Shown here piece by piece: positions 2,826 through 14,690 of a DNA stretch of 64,000 bases (the first letter of the stretch is position 1; every line of letters starts with the position of its first letter). Below the pieces are notes generated by a model. That model was not told the DNA's origin, ran no database searches, and worked only from the letters and a program-made list of their open reading frames with translations. The position numbers and the translations under genes are program-made. The DNA comes from Candidatus Omnitrophota bacterium (GTDB lineage: Bacteria; Omnitrophota; Gorgyraeia; Gygaellales; Profunditerraquicolaceae), in the NCBI GenBank assembly GCA_041663665.1, contig JBAYMG010000001.1, positions 1,482 to 65,481 of the forward strand. The letters run 5' to 3'.

Positions 2826-3454
2826 TTAAGATAGCTCCGTCAATATTATCGGCAGATTTTAGCAAGCTTGGGAATGAACTTAAGAAAGCCGAGTCTGCCG
2901 GTGCAGATTTAATCCACGTTGATGTTATGGATGGGCATTTTGTTCCTAACATTACTATTGGCCCGGTGGTTGTAAAATATATGCGTAAGGCTACTAAGCT
3001 TGCTTTGGATGTGCATTTAATGATCGAGAATCCTGCTAAATACGTCGATGCTTTTGTTAAGGCCGGAAGCGATATGATCACAGTGCACATTGAGACAGTC
3101 AGCTTGAAAGAATTATCAACTATTGCTGATTTGTTAAAAGCCAGGGGGGTGAAGCTGGGGATCTCTTTAAATCCGGCAACACCTTTAGTTAAAATTAAGA
3201 AAGCTTTAGGGTTAGTTGATTTTGTTTTGATTATGTCAGTTAATCCCGGTTTTGCCGGCCAGGCATTCATACCCGGGGCAATAAATAAAATAAAGCAATT
3301 ACGTGCTGTTTTTAATAAAGATATTTCGGTTGACGGCGGGATTAATGAAATTACTGCAAAGTTAGCAATTGCCGCCGGAGCAAACATTTTAGTTGCCGGT
3401 TCATATATCTTCGGCGCAAAAAATATTAAAAAAGCAATTAACAGCTTAAGATGA
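2822..3454 (+). CDS. rpe: ribulose-phosphate 3-epimerase
   Basis: 210-aa TIM-barrel protein with MKIAPSILSADF, HVDVMDGHFVPN and MSVNPGFAGQ motifs. Confidence 0.85.
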   Translation: MIKIAPSILSADFSKLGNELKKAESAGADLIHVDVMDGHFVPNITIGPVVVKYMRKATKLALDVHLMIENPAKYVDAFVKAGSDMITVHIETVSLKELSTIADLLKARGVKLGISLNPATPLVKIKKALGLVDFVLIMSVNPGFAGQAFIPGAINKIKQLRAVFNKDISVDGGINEITAKLAIAAGANILVAGSYIFGAKNIKKAINSLR

Positions 3455-5097: not shown

Positions 5098-6642
5098 ATG
5101 TCAGATGCTACTAGAGCAGAATTAGAACAGTTGTATAACCAAAGTATTAAAGTTTTAAAAGAGGGGCAGGTAGTTAGCGGTAAAATTGTTGGAATTAAAA
5201 CTAAAGAGGTCTTAGTAGATGTTGGTTTTAAGTCCGAAGGTATTGTCGCAATTACCGAATTTAGTACCGGCGATTTAGAAATCGGTAAAGAGATGGAATT
5301 TCTACTTGAGACCATGGAGAATGATGCCGGGGTCATGACTTTGTCACGTGAAAAAGCCATGCGTATGCAGGGCTGGGATAAAATTGTTAAATTATCCAAT
5401 GACGGCACCTTGGTTGAAGGACGCCCGGTTAAGAAAGTTAAAGGCGGATTCTTGGTCGACATTATGGGAATTGAAGGATTCCTTCCGAGTTCACTTTCTT
5501 CTTTCCGTAATATTGCTGATAAGGATATTTTATACAAAGTATTTAAATTCAAAATTGTTAAAGTTAACAACCTTCGTCGTTCGATAATTGTCAGCCGTCG
5601 TGAGGCAGTGCAGGCAGATCGAGATGTAGCTAAAGGCAAAATCTGGGGAGAACTAAAGATTGGAAATATTTATCCCGGATTGGTTAAAGCGATTACTGAT
5701 TTTGGCGCATTTATTGATTTAGGCGGAGTCGACGGGCTATTGCATATTACGGATATGTCTTGGTCAAAGATCAGCCATCCTTCCGAGATAGTAGCCATTG
5801 GAGATAAAATCGAGGTTATGATTTTAAATCTTGATCAGGCTTCGGGAAAAGTTTCCTTAGGATTAAAGCAAAGATTATCTGATCCTTGGAAAGATATCGA
5901 AGGCAAATTCACGATTGGCGCAAAAGTAAAAGGTAAGGTAGTAAATATTCTCCCTTACGGAGTTTTTGTAGAATTAGAAAAAGGCATCGAGGGCTTAATC
6001 CATGTTTCAGAGATTTCCTGGACTAAGCGTGTAAATAACCCGGGCGAAATGTTTGCCGTCGGAGATACTGTTGAGACGCAAATCTTAAGCGTGGAAAAAG
6101 ATTCGCGCAGGATTTCGCTTAGCTTAAAACAGTTAGAAGCTAATCCCTGGTTGGAAGCAGAAGCAAAATATCCGGTTAGTTCAACGATCTCCGGTAAAGT
6201 GCGCGGATTTACTGAATATGGTGCATTTGTCGAGCTGGATTCAAACTTAGAAGGTATGATCCATGTTTCTGATATTTCCTGGACCAAGAGAATCGGGCAT
6301 CCTCAGGATGTTTTGAAAAAAGGACAGAAGATAGATGTTTCAGTGCTTTCAGTTGATTCAAGTAACCGCAGGATTGCTTTAGGACTAAAGCAATTACAGG
6401 AGAATCCGTGGGTGAAAATAGCTGAAAATTATCCTCTGGACACTCAGCTAGAAGTTGAAGTCTCAAGCTTAACTGAGTTTGGCGTATTTGCTAAAATTGA
6501 CGCTGATCTGGAAGGTTTAATTTACTCCAGCGAAATTGAAAAAGAAACAGTTGCCAATTTAAAGCCCGGAGATAAAATTAAAGTTAAAGTAATTAAAGTT
6601 GATGTTGAACAAGCTAAGATTGGATTAACTGCCAGATTATAA
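5098..6642 (+). CDS. rpsA: 30S ribosomal protein S1
   Basis: 514 aa built from repeated S1 domains, each with recurring G-x-V and GLxHxS(E/D)ISW motifs. Confidence 0.85.
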   Translation: MSDATRAELEQLYNQSIKVLKEGQVVSGKIVGIKTKEVLVDVGFKSEGIVAITEFSTGDLEIGKEMEFLLETMENDAGVMTLSREKAMRMQGWDKIVKLSNDGTLVEGRPVKKVKGGFLVDIMGIEGFLPSSLSSFRNIADKDILYKVFKFKIVKVNNLRRSIIVSRREAVQADRDVAKGKIWGELKIGNIYPGLVKAITDFGAFIDLGGVDGLLHITDMSWSKISHPSEIVAIGDKIEVMILNLDQASGKVSLGLKQRLSDPWKDIEGKFTIGAKVKGKVVNILPYGVFVELEKGIEGLIHVSEISWTKRVNNPGEMFAVGDTVETQILSVEKDSRRISLSLKQLEANPWLEAEAKYPVSSTISGKVRGFTEYGAFVELDSNLEGMIHVSDISWTKRIGHPQDVLKKGQKIDVSVLSVDSSNRRIALGLKQLQENPWVKIAENYPLDTQLEVEVSSLTEFGVFAKIDADLEGLIYSSEIEKETVANLKPGDKIKVKVIKVDVEQAKIGLTARL

Positions 6643-6647
6643 AAATC

Positions 6648-6695
6648 GGGGACGCTCCTATTTAATTTCAACCGTAAATAAATAGGAGCGTCCCG
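6648..6695. repeat. Perfect palindromic element, copy 1: GGGACGCTCCTATTT(A)-16-nt loop-AAATAGGAGCGTCCC. Sits just after the rpsA stop and may act as a terminator-like hairpin.
   Basis: A 15/15 inverted-repeat stem at 6649-6663 pairs with 6680-6694. The same arms recur at 11409-11450 and as half-sites at 13485-13559. Confidence 0.7.
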
Positions 6696-6715
6696 GATTT
6701 ACTACTTAGGCTATT

Positions 6716-7885
6716 ATGAATATTGATGAGCAATTAGGCATTATCAAGCGCGGAGTTGTTGAGATAATCTCTGAAGAAGAGCTTCGTAAGAAGCTCGAAA
6801 AGAGCATTGCCTCCGGGCGCCCCTTAAAAATAAAAGCCGGTTTTGACCCGACTGCTCCGGATCTGCATTTAGGCCATACTGTACTTTTGCGTAAACTGCG
6901 ACAATTCCAGGATCTGGGCCATGAAGTTTATTTCTTGATTGGTGATTTTACCGCTCAGATTGGCGATCCTACCGGACGCTCTGAAATTCGCAAGCAGCTG
7001 ACCAAGCAGGAAGTAGCCAAAAACGCCCAGACCTATAAAAAACAAGTGGCTAAAATTCTGGACGTCCGCAAACTAAAAATAGTTTTTAACAGTAATTGGT
7101 TTGAGAAAATGTCCGGAGTCCAGATGCTGGGCCTTACAACGCATGCTTCAGTTTCTCAGATGCTTACCCGGGATGATTTTAAAAAACGTTACACAGGGGG
7201 AGAAAATATTTCTATTTTAGAGTTTGTTTATCCGTTGATGCAGGGATATGATTCAGTGAAATTAGAAGCAGATGTCGAAATTGGAGGTACTGACCAGATC
7301 TTTAATTTATTAGTCGGCAGGCAATTCCAAAAAGACTATAATCAAGCTCAGCAGGTAGTTTTGACTATGCCATTATTAGAAGGTACTGATGGTATCCAGA
7401 AGATGAGCAAGTCTTATGGTAATTATATAGGAATTAGCGAATCAGCAAAAGAAATGTTTGGTAAAGTTATGTCGATTTCTGATGAGTTAATGCTTAAATA
7501 TTATGAGTTGCTTACTGATGAGGATTTAGGAAAAGTTAAAGCAATGCATCCTAAAGAGGCAAAAGTAAATTTAGCTAAAATTATTATTACGCAATATCAT
7601 TCAGCTTTAGATGCGCAAAAAGAAGCTGATGAATTTACGCGGGTTTTTACTCAAAAAGAAGTTCCTCAGGATATGCCTAAGTTTAAAACCGACGGCAAAA
7701 AAAATATTCTACTTATCTTAACTGAGAGCAAGTTAGTGGCAAGCGGCAATGAAGCTCGTCGGTTGATTAGACAAGGCGCAGTGAGTTTTAATGATCGAAA
7801 AATAGAAAAAGATGATTTTGTCCCCAATGAGCCTGGCATCCTTAAGGCCGGTTCACGCAGGTTCCTGAAAATTGCACTCTCGTAG
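6716..7885 (+). CDS. tyrS: tyrosyl-tRNA synthetase
   Basis: HIGH motif (DLHLGHTV), KMSKS motif (KMSKSYGN) and a C-terminal S4-like domain. Confidence 0.9.
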
Positions 7886-8004
7886 ACAGTTTACGTAACC
7901 CCATATTTCCCATCCATATCTGTAAGAAATGTTTCCCATCTAAAATAAATACGGTTAGATTTTTCTCTCCTTTACGTCAATTATAGTAGGAGGAGGGGAA
8001 GGCT

Positions 8005-8691
8005 ATGCCATCATATGCGCGTAAGCATCAACTGCAACAGTCGTTATTGTATCATGCCTTTAGCCGAAGCAATGGACGCAGGGTGATTTTTCAAGAACCA
8101 GGGGATTTTGATCATTTTAAGAAATTAATCGGAGAGTATAATGATAAATTTAATTCAAAAATATATCATTGGGCAATTATGCCGAATCACTACCATCTTG
8201 TAATTGAGCTTGAATGCCCGGAATTAATTTCGAAATTTATGGCAGGATTGCATAGGGCGTATAGCCATTATTACCATAATCAATATAACGCGGTGGGTTT
8301 TTTATGGCAAGGCAGGTTCAAATTGCAGCCGATACAAAAAGAATTATATTTGAAGAGTTGTGGAAGATATGTCGAGAGAAATCCGGTGCGTGCGGGAATA
8401 GCTGCGGAAGCTTTTGAATATGCATATAGCAGCGCGCGATTTTATTGTTTAGGTCAAGAGGATGGCATAACGCGAGTCAGTCCTGATTTTGATGATTTTG
8501 GGAAAGAGGCTACTGGGCGGCAGGTGGCTTATAAGAAATTTCTTAGAGATTTTAACAGTAAAGAAGATGCTTTTTTCTCGAATATAGAGGCTCCTTGTGG
8601 TGATCCGGATTTTATACGGAAGTTGGTGAAAATAGGAAAACATTATTTCCCCAGGAGGAAAGGCCGGAAAGCCAGAATATTTGTTTTGTAA
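8005..8691 (+). CDS. IS200-like Y1 (HUH) transposase, possibly RAYT-like given the 228-aa length
   Basis: HUH motif (MPNHYHLVIE) and conserved downstream Tyr region. A strong ribosome-binding site (GGAGGAGGGGAAGG) precedes the ATG. Confidence 0.7.
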   Translation: MPSYARKHQLQQSLLYHAFSRSNGRRVIFQEPGDFDHFKKLIGEYNDKFNSKIYHWAIMPNHYHLVIELECPELISKFMAGLHRAYSHYYHNQYNAVGFLWQGRFKLQPIQKELYLKSCGRYVERNPVRAGIAAEAFEYAYSSARFYCLGQEDGITRVSPDFDDFGKEATGRQVAYKKFLRDFNSKEDAFFSNIEAPCGDPDFIRKLVKIGKHYFPRRKGRKARIFVL

Positions 8692-8733
8692 CTACCTATC
8701 ATTAATAGGATTGCGTAAACTGTCTATACTATA
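8672..8733 (+). repeat. ~60-bp IS-end-like repeat, copy A (right end of the transposase element)
   Basis: GCCAGAATATTTGTTTTGTAACTACC...ATTGCGTAAACTGTCTATACT. Its 5' box encodes the last transposase residues (ARIFVL*). Confidence 0.6.
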
Positions 8734-8771
8734 TATACATATAAAGATATGTATGATAGTATTGACATTAT

Positions 8772-9083
8772 ATGAGGGATATGTTATATTCTAATCGGAA
8801 CGACAAAATTCATGGAAGCTTTATCTGGGATATTAAGCGTGAGCTAGCAAATATATATAAGCATGGAGTAGGTTTTGCTATTGCTACAGAAGCGTTTAAA
8901 GATCCCAGGAGAAAGATTTATATTGATTCAAAACACAGCTTAGATGAAGAGCGGCTATTTTGTATTGGTAAAGTGGCAAAAAAGATTGTGACTGTAAGAT
9001 TCACTTATAGGGATGGTAAAATAAAGATTTTTGGAGCTGGATATTGGAGGAAAGGAAAGGCCTATTATGAAAAAGAAGATTAG
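8772..9083 (+). CDS. brnT: BrnT-like ribonuclease toxin (DUF497)
   Basis: 103 aa carrying the DUF497 signature FIWDxxKxxxNxxKHGVGFxxAxEAFKD. Its partner gene overlaps the 3' end. Confidence 0.65.
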   Translation: MRDMLYSNRNDKIHGSFIWDIKRELANIYKHGVGFAIATEAFKDPRRKIYIDSKHSLDEERLFCIGKVAKKIVTVRFTYRDGKIKIFGAGYWRKGKAYYEKED

Positions 9084-9306
9084 AGATTCAGAGATGCCTA
9101 TTGGTGGGCTCGCGAGGATTAAAGATTTTCTTCCTTCTCCGGAGGAATTGGTAAATACCGAGAAGACAGTTAAAGTTACTATATCACTTAAAAAAAAGAG
9201 CGTTGATTTTTTTAAACACAAGGCAGGGCAATATCATACAAAATATCAAAAAATGATACGCGAGCTTTTGGACAAATATGCAATGCAATATTCTCAGATT
9301 TCTTGA
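9067..9306 (+). CDS. brnA: BrnA-like antitoxin
   Basis: 79 aa with the KDFLPSPEEL...TVKVTISL...DFFKHKAG...GYQT-like pattern of BrnA-family antitoxins. The gene overlaps the brnT stop. Confidence 0.6.
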   Translation: MKKKIRDSEMPIGGLARIKDFLPSPEELVNTEKTVKVTISLKKKSVDFFKHKAGQYHTKYQKMIRELLDKYAMQYSQIS

Positions 9307-9330
9307 GCTATATAAGTAGTCTGTAAAAAA

Positions 9331-9392
9331 GCCACAATATTTGTTTTGTAACTATCTAAGCTCCATAAAATTACGTATACTGTCTACAGTAT
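9331..9392 (+). repeat. ~60-bp IS-end-like repeat, solo copy B, upstream of the SemiSWEET gene and followed by an extended -10 (TGTGATATAAT at 9393-9403)
   Basis: GCCACAATATTTGTTTTGTAACTATC...ATTACGTATACTGTCTACAG. The first 25 nt match copy A at 23/25. Confidence 0.6.
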
Positions 9393-9411
9393 TGTGATAT
9401 AATATTTTATT

Positions 9412-9669
9412 ATGCTTTGGACATTAATTGGCGCAATCGCTGCAACCCTTACCTCACTTTCCTTTATTCCGCAAATAGCCAGGTCTATAAGAACTAAATC
9501 GGTACAGGATGTCAGTTTGATTACTTTATGCCAATTTCTTTTAGGCGTTTTGCTTTGGATGATTTACGGTATTTCCAAGCGTGATCCGATAATAATCAGC
9601 GCCAATTTTGTAAGCGTTATAACCTTAGTCGTGCTTATTTCTTTATATTTTAAATATAAAAAGAGGTAA
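9412..9669 (+). CDS. SemiSWEET-type small sugar transporter (PQ-loop, 3 TM)
   Basis: 85 aa with three hydrophobic helices and a PQ motif in TM1 (SFIPQIARSIRTKS). No Shine-Dalgarno sequence is visible before the ATG. Confidence 0.55.
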   Translation: MLWTLIGAIAATLTSLSFIPQIARSIRTKSVQDVSLITLCQFLLGVLLWMIYGISKRDPIIISANFVSVITLVVLISLYFKYKKR

Positions 9670-9672
9670 AAA

Positions 9673-10539
9673 ATGAAAGGAATTATCCTTGCAGGTGGTA
9701 AAGCTACGCGGCTTTATCCGATAACTAAAGGCGTCTGCAAACAGATGCTGCCGATTTATGATAAGCCGATGATTTATTATCCTTTGTCGGTTTTAATGCT
9801 GGCGGGAATTAAAGATATTCTGGTTATCTCAACTTCAAAAGATGTTCCAAGGTTTAAGGATTTACTGGGTGATGGTGCAAGCATAGGGATTAAGCTTTCA
9901 TATGCGATTCAGCCTGAGCCCAAAGGGATAGCTCAGAGTTTTATTATCGCTGAGGATTTTATCGGCAAAGACAGTGTCAGTCTTATTTTGGGGGACAATA
10001 TTTTTTACGGTTTTAATTTAAGCGAGCTACTACAACGTTGCGCTAAACTCAAAAACGGAGCAGCGATCTTTGGTTATTATGTAAAAGATCCTCACCGGTA
10101 TGGTGTGTTAGCATTTGATAAAAAGTGTAAAGTAACTTCAATTGAAGAAAAGCCTTTGAAACCAAAATCTAATTGGGTGGCTTCCGGGTTATATTTTTAC
10201 GATAACAATGTGGTTAAAATTGCTAAAAATATTAAGCCTTCTAAACGAGGGGAGCTTGAAATTACGGGTGTGAATAATGAATATATTAAAAAAGGTAAAC
10301 TTCACGCAGAGTTTCTTGGCCGCGGGTATGCCTGGCTTGATACCGGTACTTATGAGTCGTTGATTGACGCTTCAATCTTTATTAAGACAATTGAGGCGCG
10401 GCAAGGGCTAAAGATTGGTTGTATTGAAGAAGTGGCTTATCGTATGGGGTATATTAATAGCAAACAATTGCTTAAGCTAGCTTCTGCTATACCGACTAGT
10501 TATGGCGAATATTTAAAGGATTTGCTTAAAAATGAATAA
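9673..10539 (+). CDS. rmlA: glucose-1-phosphate thymidylyltransferase
   Basis: [44 protein letters not shown] is near-canonical for RmlA. Confidence 0.9.
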
Positions 10540-11353
10540 AAATATCTTAATTCTGGGGAAAGGTTTTATTGGCCAGCGCCTGCAAAAAGAGTTTGGCTGT
10601 AAAATAGACGGCTCCTTGATAAATTGTTTTACGGACGCCTGGAAACTGGTTAAAAAATATAACCCTAAAATAATTATTAATTGCATCGGTACGACCGGTA
10701 AAAACAATGTTGACGGATGTGAACTGGAAAAGGATGCAACCTTGTTAGCGAACAGTTTTATTCCGGTCATATTAGCTGAGGCGGCCCTGCGCAATGATAT
10801 TAAGTTGGTACATATTTCAAGTGGTTGTATTTTTAATTTTGATTATAAAAAAGATAAACCGATTGAAGAATCCGGCCAGGATTATTTTTTTAAGTTGTTT
10901 TATAGCCGGAGCAAGATTTATTCTGAAAGAGCGCTTGAAGTATTGGCAAGAGACTATAATATTTTAATCGCCAGGATTAGAATTCCTTTGCTTAATGCCA
11001 AGCATCCTAAAAATGTCCTGGATAAACTTCTTAAATATAAAAAGGTTATTGATTTGCCTAATTCTGTAACCTATATTCCTGATTTCATCCAGGCAATCAA
11101 GCATTTGATAAAAATTGACGCCCGCGGAATTTATAACGTGGTCAATAGGGGCGGTTTGCGTTATCCTGAACTTATGAATATCTATCAGAAGTATGTTCCG
11201 GAATTTAAATATAAAGTTATTGATTTGGCCGAGATTGGTTTAGAGAGGACTAATTTGCTTTTGTCGACCAGTAAACTTGAGAAATCTGGTTTTAAAGTCA
11301 GGAATATTAACTCGGTGCTTGAAGAATGCGTAAAAGAATACCTAAAATCCTAG
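10532..11353 (+). CDS. rmlD: dTDP-4-dehydrorhamnose reductase (SDR fold)
   Basis: 273-aa Rossmann protein ([13 protein letters not shown]) sitting between rmlA and rmlB, with a C-terminal substrate-binding half like RmlD. Confidence 0.65.
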
Positions 11354-12348
11354 TCACCGGGGGCGCAGGTTTTATCGGCAGTGCTTTTCTTCGCCAGCTA
11401 ATAAATCCGGGACGCTCCTATTTGTTTTCTAAAACAAATAGGAGCGTCCCCGTTTTAATTGATTGCCTTACATATGCAGGGGATCTTAAGCGCCTTGAAG
11501 AAGTAAAAGGCAAATTTAAATTCTATAAAACCGATATCTGCGATAAGAAGAAAATCGAATCAATTTTTGCCAAAGAGAAGCCAGATATTGTAGTTCACTT
11601 TGCCGCTGAAAGCCATGTTGACCGCAGCATTAATGATGCCACGCCGTTTATTGAAACTAATATTAAGGGGACGCAAATTCTTATTGATGCCAGCCGTAAA
11701 TATCATGTAAATAGATTTATTTATATTTCTACTGATGAGGTTTACGGGGAAATAGCTAATGGTAAATTTAATGAAAATTCTCCGATAAGGCCTAACAGCC
11801 CTTACGCAGCTTCTAAAGCCTCAGCCGATCTTTTGGTCCAGTCATATATTCGTACTTATCAATTTCCGGCAATAATTATCCGGCCGTCGAATAATTATGG
11901 GCCTTGGCAGTATCCTGAAAAATTAATTCCATTAGCTATTCTTAAAATATTAAGCGGTGAGAAAGTTCCGGTTTATGGTAAAGGTCTAAACGTGCGCGAA
12001 TGGCTTTATGTTGATGATTGCGTACAGGGTATCATGGCGATTATGCACAAGGGTAAAATCGGAGAGACGTATAATTTAGGCAGCGCTTGCGAGAGTAAAA
12101 ATATTGATACAATAAAATTACTGTTAAAAACTCTGGAAGCCGGACAGGATAGATTTGAGTTTGTTAAGGATCGTTTAGGCCACGATATAAGATATAGCCT
12201 TAACTTTAAAAAAACTACCAGGGATCTTGGCTGGAAGCCGAATATTAAGCTTGCGCAAGGCCTAAAGCTTACCGTAGATTGGTCGCTTAAGCATCAGGAT
12301 TGGCTTAAGAGTAAATTGGGTGAGATAAATAAACTTTATATAAAGTAG
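11326..12348 (+). CDS. rmlB: dTDP-glucose 4,6-dehydratase carrying an in-frame palindromic insertion
   Basis: TGGAGFIGS...DCLTYAG...HFAAESHVDRS...YAASKASADLL are canonical RmlB motifs. An extra ~15 aa (PGRSYLFSKTNRSVP) is encoded by the palindrome at 11409-11450. Confidence 0.9.
   Translation: MRKRIPKILVTGGAGFIGSAFLRQLINPGRSYLFSKTNRSVPVLIDCLTYAGDLKRLEEVKGKFKFYKTDICDKKKIESIFAKEKPDIVVHFAAESHVDRSINDATPFIETNIKGTQILIDASRKYHVNRFIYISTDEVYGEIANGKFNENSPIRPNSPYAASKASADLLVQSYIRTYQFPAIIIRPSNNYGPWQYPEKLIPLAILKILSGEKVPVYGKGLNVREWLYVDDCVQGIMAIMHKGKIGETYNLGSACESKNIDTIKLLLKTLEAGQDRFEFVKDRLGHDIRYSLNFKKTTRDLGWKPNIKLAQGLKLTVDWSLKHQDWLKSKLGEINKLYIK
11409..11450. repeat. Palindromic element copy 2 (GGGACGCTCCTATTTG-loop-CAAATAGGAGCGTCCC), located inside the rmlB reading frame without breaking it
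   Basis: 16-nt perfect arms with a 10-nt loop. The arms are identical to the copy after rpsA. Confidence 0.75.
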
Positions 12349-12364
12349 CGCGTTTTTTGGTTTA

Positions 12365-12420
12365 CTATATTTCTTCTGTAATTATTAGTTATTAAAAGGG
12401 TTACGTACACTGTCTACACT
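12365..12420 (+). repeat. ~60-bp IS-end-like repeat, solo copy D, ending 9 nt before the 12429 start codon
   Basis: ATTTCTTCTGTAATTATTAG...GGGTTACGTACACTGTCTACACT. Confidence 0.55.
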
Positions 12421-12428
12421 ACAAACAT

Positions 12429-13478
12429 ATGGCGATTGTGATTGTTACAGGTTCTTGCGGATTGGTTGGTTCAGAAACAGTTAGTTTCTTCGCGCAAAAA
12501 GGGTTTGATATCGTCGGTATTGATAACAATATGCGCCAAAGTTTTTTCGGCGCAGACGGCTCAACCTTTTGGAATCAAAAACGCCTTCAGAAACTGTACA
12601 AGAATTATCATCATTATTCCGTAGATATCCGCAATCAAAGTAAAATAAATTCCATATTTAAAAAATATAACAAAGACATAGCTTTGGTGGTGCATGCTGC
12701 TGCTCAGCCGTCTCATGATTGGGCGGCCAAAGACCCAGTAGTTGATTTTACCGTTAATGCCCAGGGTACATTAATTATGCTGGAAGCTTTTCGCCAATTT
12801 TGTCCTCAAGCCGTTTTTATTTTTACTTCAACCAATAAAGTTTACGGTGATACTCCTAATCGACTGCCGCTAGTTGAACAAGAAAAACGTTTTGAGATTT
12901 CTCCAGATCATCAATATGGTAAGGGTATAGACGAAGCAATGAGTATTGATCATTCTTTGCATTCAGTTTTTGGCGCTTCCAAGGCTGCTGCAGATATTAT
13001 GACTCAGGAATACGGAAAGTATTTTCATCTGCGTACCGGGATTTTCCGCGGCGGCTGTTTAACCGGGCCGGCGCATTCCGGAGCTGAGCTGCATGGATTT
13101 TTATCTTATTTTATCAAATGCGTGATTACCGGGCGCAAATATGTAATTTACGGCTATAAAGGCAAGCAGGTGCGCGACAATATTCATTCTTATGATTTGG
13201 TTAATGCCTTTTATCATTTTTTTAAATCACCGCGTTGCGGCGAAGTTTACAACATAGGCGGCGGCAGATTTGCTAATATTTCTATTTTAGAAGCAATTGA
13301 ACTTTGCCAGAAAATAACCGGCAAGAAACTAAATTTTGAATATATTGAAAGAAATCGCATTGGCGATCATATTTGGTGGATTTCAGATGTTTCTAAATTC
13401 AGGTCCCATTATCCTGATTGGAATTACAAATTTGGCATAGAGGAGACAATTAAACAGATATTTGATGCACAAGCATAA
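12429..13478 (+). CDS. NAD-dependent CDP-sugar epimerase (CDP-paratose/tyvelose 2-epimerase family, RfbE-like)
   Basis: Extended SDR protein whose motifs [11 protein letters not shown], DNxxRxxFFGxDG, [10 protein letters not shown] and [12 protein letters not shown] match the paratose-epimerase family. Confidence 0.6.
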
Positions 13479-13484
13479 TTTATA

Positions 13485-13559
13485 AATAGGAGCGTCCCCA
13501 GATTATAATTGCGCGGTGGGGATAATTGGAAGGTTACAGAAATAAATAGAAACGTCCCC
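13485..13559. repeat. Two degenerate right-arm half-copies of the palindromic element (AAATAGGAGCGTCCCC and AAATAGAAACGTCCCC)
   Basis: Direct sequence match to the right arm of the 6648 and 11409 copies. No left arms are present. Confidence 0.5.
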
Positions 13560-13574
13560 GCAGGGAGGTAGCGT

Positions 13575-14428
13575 ATGAAAAATAAAATTCTTGAAATAAC
13601 GTCCAGGGGTGAAATTGTCATCTATAGGGCTAAAAACAAAAAATACAGCTTGAGGTTAAACTGGAGCATGAGACTGTTTGGCTAACCCAAAAACAAATGG
13701 CTGATTTGTTTACTAAGAACATCCGAACAGTTAACGAACATATACAGAACGTATTTAAAGAAGTGGAGTTAAAGAAAAGTTCAGTTATCCGGAATTTCCG
13801 GATAACTGCCGCTGATGGTAAAAGTTATGAAACCAATTTTTATAATCTTGATGTAGTAATTTCGGTAGGTTATCGTATCAAATCTCAGAATGGCACTCGG
13901 TTTCGTATTTGGGCAACAAATGTTCTTAAACAGCATCTAATTGATGGATATACATTAAATGAGAAACGCCTAAAAGAACAAGCTCAAAAACTTCAGGCCT
14001 TACAGCGAGCAGTGAAGTTAATTAGCAGTATGAAAGATCGCAAGCAACTTGAATATAAAGAAGCTATGGGGTTGCTTGAAGTTATCAGCGACTACAATTA
14101 CGCGCTTGGATTGTTGGATGATTATGATTATAAGCGGCTCAAAATAAGCCAAATCTCTAAAAAGGAAAGGTTTATCTTAAGCTACAAGTTTGCAATAGAA
14201 GCCGTTAATAAGCTTAAAGAAAGAATTAGTAGTTCAAATCTTTTTGGTGTAGAGCGCGATAAATCATTTAAAAGTTCTGTATCCTCAATTTATCAAACAT
14301 TTGACGCAAAGGAATTATACCCAAGCATTGAAGAAAAAGCGGCGAATCTCCTTTATTTTATTTCAAAAATCATTCATTCGTTGATGGCAATAAGCGAATT
14401 GCAGCCTCGATATTTATATGGTTTTTAG
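13575..14428 (+). pseudogene. rhuM: RhuM-family (virulence/DNA-binding) gene with a frameshift in its N-terminal region; the intact ORF begins at 13697
   Basis: The ORF from 13697 carries the RhuM N-domain (ETVWLTQKQMADLF...IRNFRITAADGKSYETNFYNLDVVISVGYRIKSQNGTRFRIWATNVL). The expected first ~25 aa (MKNKILEITSRGEIVIYRAKNKK) lie in another frame, and the switch is at the A-rich tract at 13632-13643. Confidence 0.5.
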
Positions 14429-14629
14429 AGAAAAATGGTATCTTGCATAAGGAAGACGGCTCAAAGGGGATTGCCGATAATGCTTTAGTTGCTCTGATTT
14501 TAATGATTGCAGAAAGCAAGTCCAGCGAGCGAGAGATCATTGTTACACTGGTTGTGAATTTAATAAATAGAAATAATTGAAGTTAATCGAATAAGCTTTA
14601 ATTGTTTTGTTGATAACTGGTAGCGGATA

Positions 14630-14688
14630 GTAGTATTTCTTTTGTAACTGTTTAGATTCAATTAGGTTGCGTACACTGTCTATTAAGC
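14630..14688 (+). repeat. ~60-bp IS-end-like repeat, solo copy C, ending 2 nt before the ATG at 14691
   Basis: ATTTCTTTTGTAACTG...GGTTGCGTACACTGTCTATTA. Confidence 0.55.
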
Positions 14689-14690
14689 CT

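Follow-up and report, generated by a model that had tools for sequence, protein, structure and literature searches.

A transposase-like gene flanked by a bipartite repeat

The DNA analysed here is a 64,000-nucleotide (nt) stretch of the Candidatus Omnitrophota contig JBAYMG010000001.1 (assembly GCA_041663665.1; hereafter the window), and we focus on a gene for a 228-aa Y1 transposase-like protein and on a short repeat that lies at both ends of this gene and recurs further downstream. An earlier note on the same DNA had described the gene and its flanks as an IS200-like element and the other repeats as solo copies of its right end, and had proposed that these copies act as portable promoters or as binding sites for a common regulator. 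A published arrangement against which the locus can be read is the TIRtron, in which genes (TIRYTs) resembling those of REP-associated tyrosine transposases (RAYTs) lie between long terminal inverted repeats (TIRs) in place of repetitive extragenic palindromes (REPs) (Di Nocera, De Gregorio & Rocco 2013, PMC3733652). A repeat search of the window returned four direct copies and one inverted copy, matching the coordinates of the earlier note, and a profile hidden Markov model (HMM; described below) located the same five; the core coordinates used here are those defined by the HMM.

7882..7932, minus strand: inverted 51-nt copy, left terminal repeat of the transposase unit (HMM, repeat search)
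7954..7989, plus strand: conserved region 5' of the transposase gene (GTTAGATT...TTACGTCAATTATAGTAG), followed by the Shine-Dalgarno (SD) sequence GGAGGAGG
8005..8691, plus strand: gene for the 228-aa Y1 (HUH) tyrosine transposase-like protein, RAYT/TIRYT type (Pfam, NCBIfam, profile, fold)
8677..8727, plus strand: direct copy, right terminal repeat of the transposase unit (HMM, repeat search)
9337..9387, plus strand: solo direct copy, 3' of brnA and 5' of the SemiSWEET gene (HMM, repeat search)
12367..12417, plus strand: solo direct copy between rfbB and the gene for a 349-aa epimerase (HMM, repeat search)
14633..14683, plus strand: solo direct copy before the gene for a 248-aa beta-rich protein (HMM, repeat search)

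The element is 51 nt long and bipartite: the 5' box RTATTTSTTttgTAAc is followed, after 18 nt of variable spacer, by the 3' box TTaCrTAnACTGTCTAy. The five copies span 7882-14683. The outer 3' box ends in CTAC, so that the opposite strand starts with GTAG, and column 57 of the alignment is C in ~70% of copies. The 16-nt 3' core TTRCGTAMACTGTCTA has five matches in the window at up to one mismatch and six at up to three mismatches; shuffled sequences gave a mean of 1.31 matches and none of 100 shuffles reached six. Neither a pattern search nor the profile HMM detected a sixth copy of the element in the remaining ~57 kb of the window.

The copies are set tightly against genes. The TAG stop codon of tyrS is the reverse complement of the terminal CTA of the inverted copy at 7882-7932, which accounts for the overlap recorded in the earlier note, and the same arrangement is found in four of the other loci that we compared (L023, L057, L073, and L128). 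At the other end of the unit, the 5' box of the copy at 8677-8727 contains the final codons and the TAA stop (8689-8691) of the transposase gene; this overlap is kept in every ortholog of 75-82% identity, while in homologs at 62% and 60% identity the element begins just past the stop. The copy at 9337-9387 retains on its 5' side a remnant of the transposase 3' end (AAAGCCAcAAT). The idea that the solo repeats are copies of the end of a transposase unit is borne out, and the unit is that of a Y1-transposase gene. Counted from column 57, the distance from a direct copy to the next ATG is 44 nt for brnT (ATG at 8772), 24 nt for the SemiSWEET gene (9412), 11 nt for the epimerase gene (12429), and 7 nt for the gene of the 248-aa beta-rich protein (14691), and the position of the last of these copies differs between species. 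The short distances agree with the earlier note, as does the lack of recognisable ribosome-binding sites: by eye, no GGAG-type motif is present within 20 nt 5' of these four ATGs, while such a motif precedes the transposase gene and rfbA.

The gene encodes a RAYT-like Y1 protein

The 228-aa protein matches the Pfam family Y1_Tnp at 62 bits. Its best-scoring NCBIfam model is that of the REP-associated tyrosine transposases (REP_Tyr_transpos, NF047646), with 59.7 bits under a cut-off of 80, and the IS200 model gives 23.5 bits under a cut-off of 55. A search of the PDB with the single sequence returned nothing useful and a family profile was needed; the profile of 32 homologs matched Escherichia coli TnpA_REP (4ER8) with E=2.6e-5, and ISDra2 TnpA reached no better than E=0.22. 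Invariant in the 32 homologs are H62-Y-H64, W101-Q102, and Y122-x3-N126-P127, and the profile alignment with 4ER8 matches the HUH motif, W-Q, and Y-x3-NP. 4ER8 was also the top Foldseek match of an AlphaFold2 model of the protein (mean predicted local distance difference test score, 79.5). Based on the two model scores, the absence of IS200-type subterminal hairpins, and TnpA_REP as the nearest solved relative, the label IS200-like of the earlier note is imprecise. The C-terminal ~85 residues form a conserved helical extension, with the serine motif YSSARFY beside the core; Pfam at E<=0.01 detected no Bac_DnaA_C or helix-turn-helix (HTH) domain in this part of the protein.

At E<=1e-10 we found 3,916 homologs, and the best 120 of these 3,916 are mostly 222-234 aa long and mostly on one or two contigs; the gene looks single-copy. 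The order tyrS, inverted element, transposase gene, direct element is kept in five species with orthologs 75-82% identical. Judged from its sequence and context, the gene has the properties of RAYT-type genes and is unlike an insertion sequence (PMC3333891, PMC6006769). The ~40 nt 5' of the gene (GTTAGATT ... TACGTCTATTATAGTAG) are conserved down to 53% protein identity (L121, L123, L126, and L128). Region 7954-7989 carries a degenerate motif like the 3' box and may be the gene's own promoter or operator, or an autoregulatory site.

In several unrelated neighbourhoods, the transposase-like gene has a toxin-antitoxin module (BrnTA, ParE-type, or Phd/ParE) beside it or close by, at the following positions:

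L123, 10814-11316: toxin-antitoxin module
L126, 5142-5679: toxin-antitoxin module
L128, 10785-11289: toxin-antitoxin module
Window, 8772-9306: toxin-antitoxin module

These neighbours recall some E. coli strains where hicAB has taken the place of tnpA_REP (PMC3333891).

The element is widespread in Omnitrophota

In a first scan, the 3' core was searched against one genome per species and gave at least 118 loci; in a second scan, a strict two-box pattern was searched against metagenomes and gave at least 120 further loci. The family-wide counts given here and below (copies, doublets, orientation, and neighbours) rest on loci among the matches listed. By our estimate, the degenerate 3' core would by chance have ~1000 matches in the set of one genome per species. 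Every match in a Candidatus Omnitrophota metagenome-assembled genome (MAG) has the 5' box at the identical distance, whereas matches in other taxa are without it. Forty-six seed copies from different species align without gaps, and the HMM built from them recovers 69 copies in the loci of the first scan. Because 23 copies outside the search pattern still have the invariant TATTT.TT and ACTGTCTA, the conservation of the element is not an artefact of the search.

In total, the family comprises at least 268 copies in 148 loci (at least 252 copies after dereplication) from MAGs and metagenomes, and a consensus was computed from 247 distinct cores. Clusters of 5-9 copies occur within 5-20 kb. The family is phylum-wide in Omnitrophota and, among the matches listed, specific to this phylum; it is not the local duplication that the earlier note had named as its refuting case. 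The strict two-box pattern had no match in viral contigs, and a phage origin of the element was rejected on this ground.

Gene and repeats behave as one unit

Among these loci, which were picked by the DNA motif alone, the transposase gene is the commonest neighbour of the element, adjoining 33 of the 268 copies in 19 loci. If a genome has one gene with two flanking copies, this proportion corresponds to ~16 copies per genome, in agreement with the ~1 strict match per 150 kb in long metagenome contigs, and we estimate ~10-30 copies per genome. An inverted 51-nt pair flanks the gene in the window, L128, L023, L057, and L073, as well as in the divergent loci L121, L123, and L126.

The divergent homologs are the most informative. 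Homologs at 62, 60, and 53% identity lie in unrelated neighbourhoods and are each bracketed by an inverted element pair of the same layout, and the terminal motif changes from one to the next: at 62% identity it is ACTGTCTAC/G, with no changed base; at 60% it is AGCGTCTAC on both flanks, with one changed base; and at 53% it is AGCGTCTTG on both flanks, with three changed bases. On these alignments the terminal motif of the repeats diverges in step with the protein, and we regard this as decisive for the link between gene and repeats. A 36%-identity paralog in L039 has no recognisable flanking copies of the element family. Contig L126 holds a standard copy (ACTGTCTAC) in addition to the variant family (AGCGTCTTG) that flanks its 53%-identity homolog (element copies at 1379-1434, 1561-1597, and 3279-3311), which suggests two repeat families in one genome, perhaps with two paralogous genes.

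Copies are gained at gene junctions

Synteny comparisons revealed gains and losses between related loci. The window, L128, and L057 have brnTA together with one extra element copy; L023 and L073 lack this unit and have extra solo copies of their own. The epimerase gene is preceded by the element in the same position and orientation in the window, L073, and L060; in L128 it has an opposite-orientation copy instead, after a two-gene insertion, and two sugar genes are bracketed by copies where the window has one copy. At the rfbD|rfbB junction, a conserved gene overlap is intact in four species, while L073 has the element and ~25 nt there; because the element occupies this junction, rfbD of L073 ends inside the element and rfbB gains a new N-terminus. 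The SemiSWEET|rfbA junction is empty in three species and filled in L023. From these alignments, the filled and empty junctions are read as lineage-specific insertions of the element. Variable genes (brnTA, ugd plus epimerase, and RhuM) are bounded by element copies.

Of 79 gene ends that face the 3' box, 41 have their stop codon inside it, with the terminal CTA supplying TAG for 28 of them and TTA supplying TAA for 13; neighbouring genes recruit TAG or TAA stops from the outer box. The neighbours are functionally diverse and include tyrS, nadD, lipA, rpe, and dus as well as toxin-antitoxin genes and small DNA-binding genes of phage type, and sugar-nucleotide genes (epimerase, manC, and rfbA) are frequent among them.

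The RhuM-family gene at 13576-14570 of the window looks fragmented into a short N-terminal ORF (open reading frame), a 243-aa ORF, and a short trailing ORF. The Pfam match of the 243-aa ORF covers only profile positions 1-109 of 252, and reading by eye there is an apparent frameshift in an A-run near 13640. The gene is likely a pseudogene or an assembly error, and it is absent at that position in other species.

Doublets are exclusively head-to-head and single copies have no hairpin

Copies also occur as closely spaced pairs. Each of the 37 dereplicated doublets is head-to-head, its two 5' boxes facing inward and its GTAG termini outward, and no tail-to-tail or tandem pairs were found within 100 nt. 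Doublets occupy more than 15 non-orthologous sites, and their linkers are 8, 16-20 (n=21), 26-27, 36-38, or 55-56 nt long, so that the classes (8, 17, 27, 37, and 56 nt) are roughly one helical turn (~10 bp) apart; the linker sequences differ (L006, L013, L109, L213, and others). Several of the 17-18-nt linkers have GGGTAAGAG in common. Doublets fold as long imperfect hairpins (z -0.3 to -13.6).

For single copies, DNA folding of both strands detected no hairpin (z -1.2 to +2.0 compared with shuffles). The one plausible internal stem, a weak TGTAAC/GTTACR pairing between the boxes, was rejected: at each of its six pairs, Watson-Crick pairing is as frequent as in shuffles, and no two columns of the element alignment share more than 0.32 bits of mutual information. 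Rfam gave no match for the element, only miRNA-like noise on an unrelated palindrome at 11395-11465.

This palindrome lies within a second, unrelated palindromic repeat family (GGGACGCTCCTATTT ... AAATAGGAGCGTCCC), found at 6649-6700, 11393-11466, 13484-13499, and 13544-13559: one full hairpin is located between rpsA and tyrS, another is part of the rfbB reading frame, where it falls in a loop that differs from ortholog to ortholog, and two half-copies are 3' of the epimerase gene. The second family is scarce in the other loci (11 matches in 7 of 250 sources) and contains CGTC; it may belong to the 'CGTC-tagged' REPs as described by Di Nocera 2013.

Solo copies are biased in orientation

When all copies including doublets were compared with ORFs of at least 90 aa, orientation was balanced (61 versus 59). 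Solo copies were co-oriented with flanking genes, small ORFs included, at 49 versus 25 collapsed positions (p=0.007), and sorted by GC-skew strand they lay on the G-rich strand at 62 versus 21 positions (p=8e-6). The co-orientation bias of solos is thus 2-3:1, and a quarter to a third of them point away from the downstream gene, as does the tyrS copy that is conserved in five species. Because gene direction and GC skew coincide completely in these loci, replication-coupled transposition and a role in expression are inseparable as sources of the bias; replication-coupled single-strand transposition is known for IS608-type elements (PMC3333891). GC skew is positive throughout positions 1-64000 of the window (+0.12 to +0.24 in 4-kb windows), and between 5 and 17 kb, the part examined, every long ORF lies on the plus strand; the whole window is probably on the leading strand of one replichore.

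Sigma-70-like sequences were found downstream of two of the copies:

8762..8790, plus strand: canonical sigma-70-like site TTGACA-17-TATATT with upstream TG, outside the element (best site of the scan, 11 of 12)
9395..9403, plus strand: extended -10 TGaTATAAT between the copy at 9337-9387 and the SemiSWEET ATG at 9412, outside the element (by sequence reading)

Sites equivalent to 8762-8790 follow the orthologous copies in L094 and L114. In the window this site overlaps the predicted brnT ATG at 8772, and either the brnT start is mis-set (the L128 ortholog has 96 aa, not 103) or the site is fortuitous. The SemiSWEET arrangement is conserved in two species (L023, about 5302-5328: TGTGGTATAAT, 8 nt, ATG), and the SemiSWEET gene appears to be transcribed into a near-leaderless mRNA by a conventional promoter of the extended -10 type.

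Several further promoter-like readings of the element were discarded. A recognition by an extracytoplasmic function (ECF) sigma factor (GTAAC ... CGTA) was rejected on geometry, the spacer being 21 nt, whereas the usual spacer of ECF-sigma promoters is 16-17 nt. Resemblances to sigma-54 promoters, SOS boxes, and T7-like promoters were rejected by eye, and a JUMPstart/ops-like antitermination element of polysaccharide operons was rejected because of the diverse neighbours and both orientations.

Comparison with known systems

The arrangement, as far as sequence can tell, matches the published TIRtron/TIRYT description, and the element family is therefore not a new kind of system but one already known though little studied. 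TIRs of TIRtrons sometimes overlap the 3' end of the gene, and their families are moderately abundant, occurring as singles, dimers, and clusters (PMC3733652). In the same way, the Omnitrophota locus has a RAYT-like Y1 HUH gene between long inverted repeats of a kind other than hairpin REPs, one of which extends over the 3' end of the gene; the repeats form a dispersed, moderately abundant family (at least 268 copies, with 37 doublets and clusters); and different paralogs go with different TIR families, of which L126 carries two. The motif GGGGWSAS, common to many but not all published TIRs, is absent from the 247-core consensus, which has the GTAG end instead; the host phylum Omnitrophota is new for the arrangement; and the strict bipartite layout with fixed spacing and the exclusively head-to-head doublets had not been described. 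TIRYT-type Y1 proteins largely equal subclass 2.1, the second-largest group of the IS200/RAYT superfamily; Quentin et al. 2018 equated subclass 2.1 with TIRYTs and found no REP-like sequences around subclasses 2.1 and 2.3 (PMC6006769). TnpAY1 proteins of subclass 2.1 have a C-terminal DnaA_C/HTH-type extension and are among the longest of the superfamily (PMC6006769). The Omnitrophota protein is shorter, at 228 aa, and has a conserved helical C-terminal extension of ~85 aa in which Pfam at E<=0.01 gave no Bac_DnaA_C/HTH match.

With REPtrons, as represented by E. coli yafM and 4ER8 (PMC3333891, PMC3479197, PMC3116915), the locus shares a single-copy, vertically inherited Y1 gene at a fixed position that is flanked by inverted copies of a dispersed intergenic repeat with a GTAG terminus, inverted doublets with discrete linker lengths, repeats presumably mobilised in trans, and a protein whose nearest solved relative is TnpA_REP and in which W-Q and Y-x3-NP are conserved. 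A REP is defined by a 5' GT[AG]G at the foot of an imperfect 20-40-nt palindrome; the element has the GTAG terminus, but its unit of 51 nt is without a palindrome of its own, whereas REPs are 20-40-nt hairpins. Moreover, the element has tens of copies per genome where REPs have hundreds, its doublet arms do not co-evolve as REPIN arms do, and the NCBIfam RAYT score of 59.7 is under the cut-off of 80. E. coli TnpA_REP needs the GTAG tetranucleotide to bind REPs.

The resemblance to IS200/IS605 elements extends to the Y1 HUH fold with HUH motif and catalytic Tyr, and to a strand bias that is consistent with single-strand transposition. Unlike these elements, the Omnitrophota unit is without subterminal hairpins and its ends are inverted repeats, the gene is single-copy, syntenic, and 228 aa rather than ~130-150 aa long, and the score with the IS200 model (23.5 bits) is under the cut-off of 55. 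Miniature inverted-repeat transposable elements (MITEs) and outward-promoter repeats, such as the Correia elements of Neisseria, are likewise short intergenic repeats lying tight against genes, which can remodel gene ends and might supply promoters; they depend on DDE transposases and have short TIRs and target-site duplications. The Omnitrophota element differs in being partnered by a Y1 HUH protein and in having the 51-nt unit itself as its repeat, and a target-site duplication could not be defined for it.

The repeats as probable terminal inverted repeats of a TIRtron

Taken together, these observations make it probable that the repeats are the TIR family of a TIRtron, i.e. the cognate DNA partners of the transposase-like gene at 8005-8691. 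The unit consists of the inverted 51-bp copy, ~70 nt with a putative promoter and the SD, the gene for the 228-aa Y1 HUH protein of the REP-associated clade, and the direct copy overlapping the stop, and it looks like a single-copy, syntenic locus vertically inherited in Omnitrophota. Further copies would have spread in trans to intergenic junctions, where they are clustered and stand as solos or strictly head-to-head doublets, each with its 5' box on the inside and its 3' box on the outside, a fixed distance apart. Binding and nicking of the repeats by the protein is our inference; it would probably take place on single-stranded DNA at replication forks and would explain the strand bias of the solos. 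Two inverted copies may pair and thereby supply the hairpin that a single copy is without.

Several observations weigh against this interpretation. A single copy has no hairpin, although E. coli TnpA_REP bound only single-stranded hairpin REPs (PMC3333891). The spacers of doublet arms have an identity of 0.38, compared with 0.49 for pairs from the same locus and 0.39 for random pairs, and the concordance of variable columns is not raised; because the arms are no more alike than unrelated copies, doublets do not behave as REPINs, in which two inverted repeats make one hairpin and evolve together with matching arms, and co-evolving arms of the REPIN kind were rejected. In L049 and L114, the copy 5' of the transposase gene is direct and not inverted. 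Filled junctions are not clean, in that extra sequence comes with the element, and a target-site duplication sought at these junctions could not be defined. Many copies lie at orthologous positions across species with ~80% identical proteins, which could reflect a host function. To our knowledge, no biochemistry has been reported for any TIRYT.

We therefore considered what else the element could be. If it were a portable promoter, its 3' box would drive transcription outward, for example with TAnACT (columns 46-51) as -10 and a start near column 58, giving leaderless or short-leader mRNAs, either as the main function or as a secondary one acquired by a mobile repeat. The 2-3:1 co-orientation of solos would fit, as would the 21 of 80 start-facing copies that are followed at 1-12 nt by a start codon (17 of the 21 without an SD-like motif), the near-invariant T46, A47, and T51, a purine at column 58 in 84% of start-facing copies with TAnACT 7 nt before it, and the lack of room for another promoter between the rfbB stop and the epimerase start at 12429. 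However, the same bases are as strongly conserved in copies facing gene ends, and replication-coupled single-strand transposition would predict the strand bias equally well (PMC3333891). The '-10-like hexamer' of the earlier note is not sustained, since only its TA is conserved and TAnnnT occurs in 33% of start-facing versus 44% of end-facing copies; no -35 is present at sigma-70 spacing (16-18 bp), a scan giving a 9-of-12 site in one copy only and with non-conserved spacer bases; and sigma-70-like sites are in total as numerous as in shuffles. Several copies have a canonical promoter downstream of them, orthologs of the epimerase gene have the element before them in either orientation, antisense transcription into a gene 3' end would follow for a quarter to a third of solos and for one arm of each doublet, and the link with the transposase gene is left unexplained. 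We consider a portable promoter unlikely; these arguments, together with the diverse neighbours, speak against it as the main function in particular, and on sequence grounds outward-promoter activity would be secondary at best. A structured RNA element (leader, riboswitch, small RNA, or terminator) would suit the intergenic position just 5' of genes in the window, but is effectively refuted by single copies that fold no better than shuffles, pairing at the shuffled level, mutual information that stays at or below 0.32 bits, the absence of an Rfam match, and the occurrence in both orientations.

Binding sites for a host protein, either the regulator of a regulon for surface polysaccharides or a nucleoid-structuring protein, would make the elements immobile and the transposase-like gene a mere neighbour. 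A strictly constant distance between two invariant boxes, the lack of secondary structure as RNA or DNA, copies conserved at orthologous positions, the frequent sugar-nucleotide neighbours, and doublet linker classes ~10 bp apart would all be accommodated. Yet the neighbours, from tyrS, nadD, lipA, rpe, and dus to toxin-antitoxin and phage-type genes, form no coherent regulon, copies are gained as insertions into otherwise intact junctions, and the boxes diverge with the transposase-like protein, whose gene is by far the commonest neighbour; hence we regard host-protein sites as highly improbable. The common-regulator site of the earlier note fares no better as a main function in view of the diverse neighbours, the symmetric doublets, and the mixed orientations. 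Still less credence goes to recombination sites of a cassette system, in which the Y1 protein would insert and excise gene cassettes (brnTA, sugar genes) in the manner of integron attC sites, imperfect palindromes that fold into bottom-strand hairpins and stand in arrays of one orientation. In support of such sites, copies bound every gene-content difference in the syntenic block, an extra copy including the remnant of the transposase 3' end comes with the brnTA insertion, and toxin-antitoxin modules follow the gene in several lineages. But mobile repeats generally gather in flexible regions anyway, most copies flank housekeeping genes, and the copies around variable genes are sometimes direct and sometimes inverted; with these mixed orientations and no attC-like hairpin in the element, attC-like cassette sites were rejected.

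Implications

A reading that joins several of these ideas, and that we think quite doubtful, is that a domesticated Y1-repeat system rewires the compact genomes of Omnitrophota by -10-only outward promoters and HUH-mediated cassette recombination. If true, insertions would leave genes near-leaderless and without an SD and would give rise to antisense transcripts at the 3' ends of genes, toxin-antitoxin and sugar-modifying genes would be swapped as cassettes in surface-glycan loci, and a REP-type transposase would have a hairpin-independent, integron-like role.

With the repeats as the probable TIRs of a TIRtron, the family offers a clean comparative data set, with ~250 dereplicated copies from many species, filled and empty sites, and co-divergence of repeat and protein, and it makes testable the question of how a family of hairpin-reading single-strand nucleases handles non-palindromic repeats. 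For annotation, the repeat explains odd gene ends in Omnitrophota MAGs, namely stops supplied by the repeat and SD-less starts a few nt past it.

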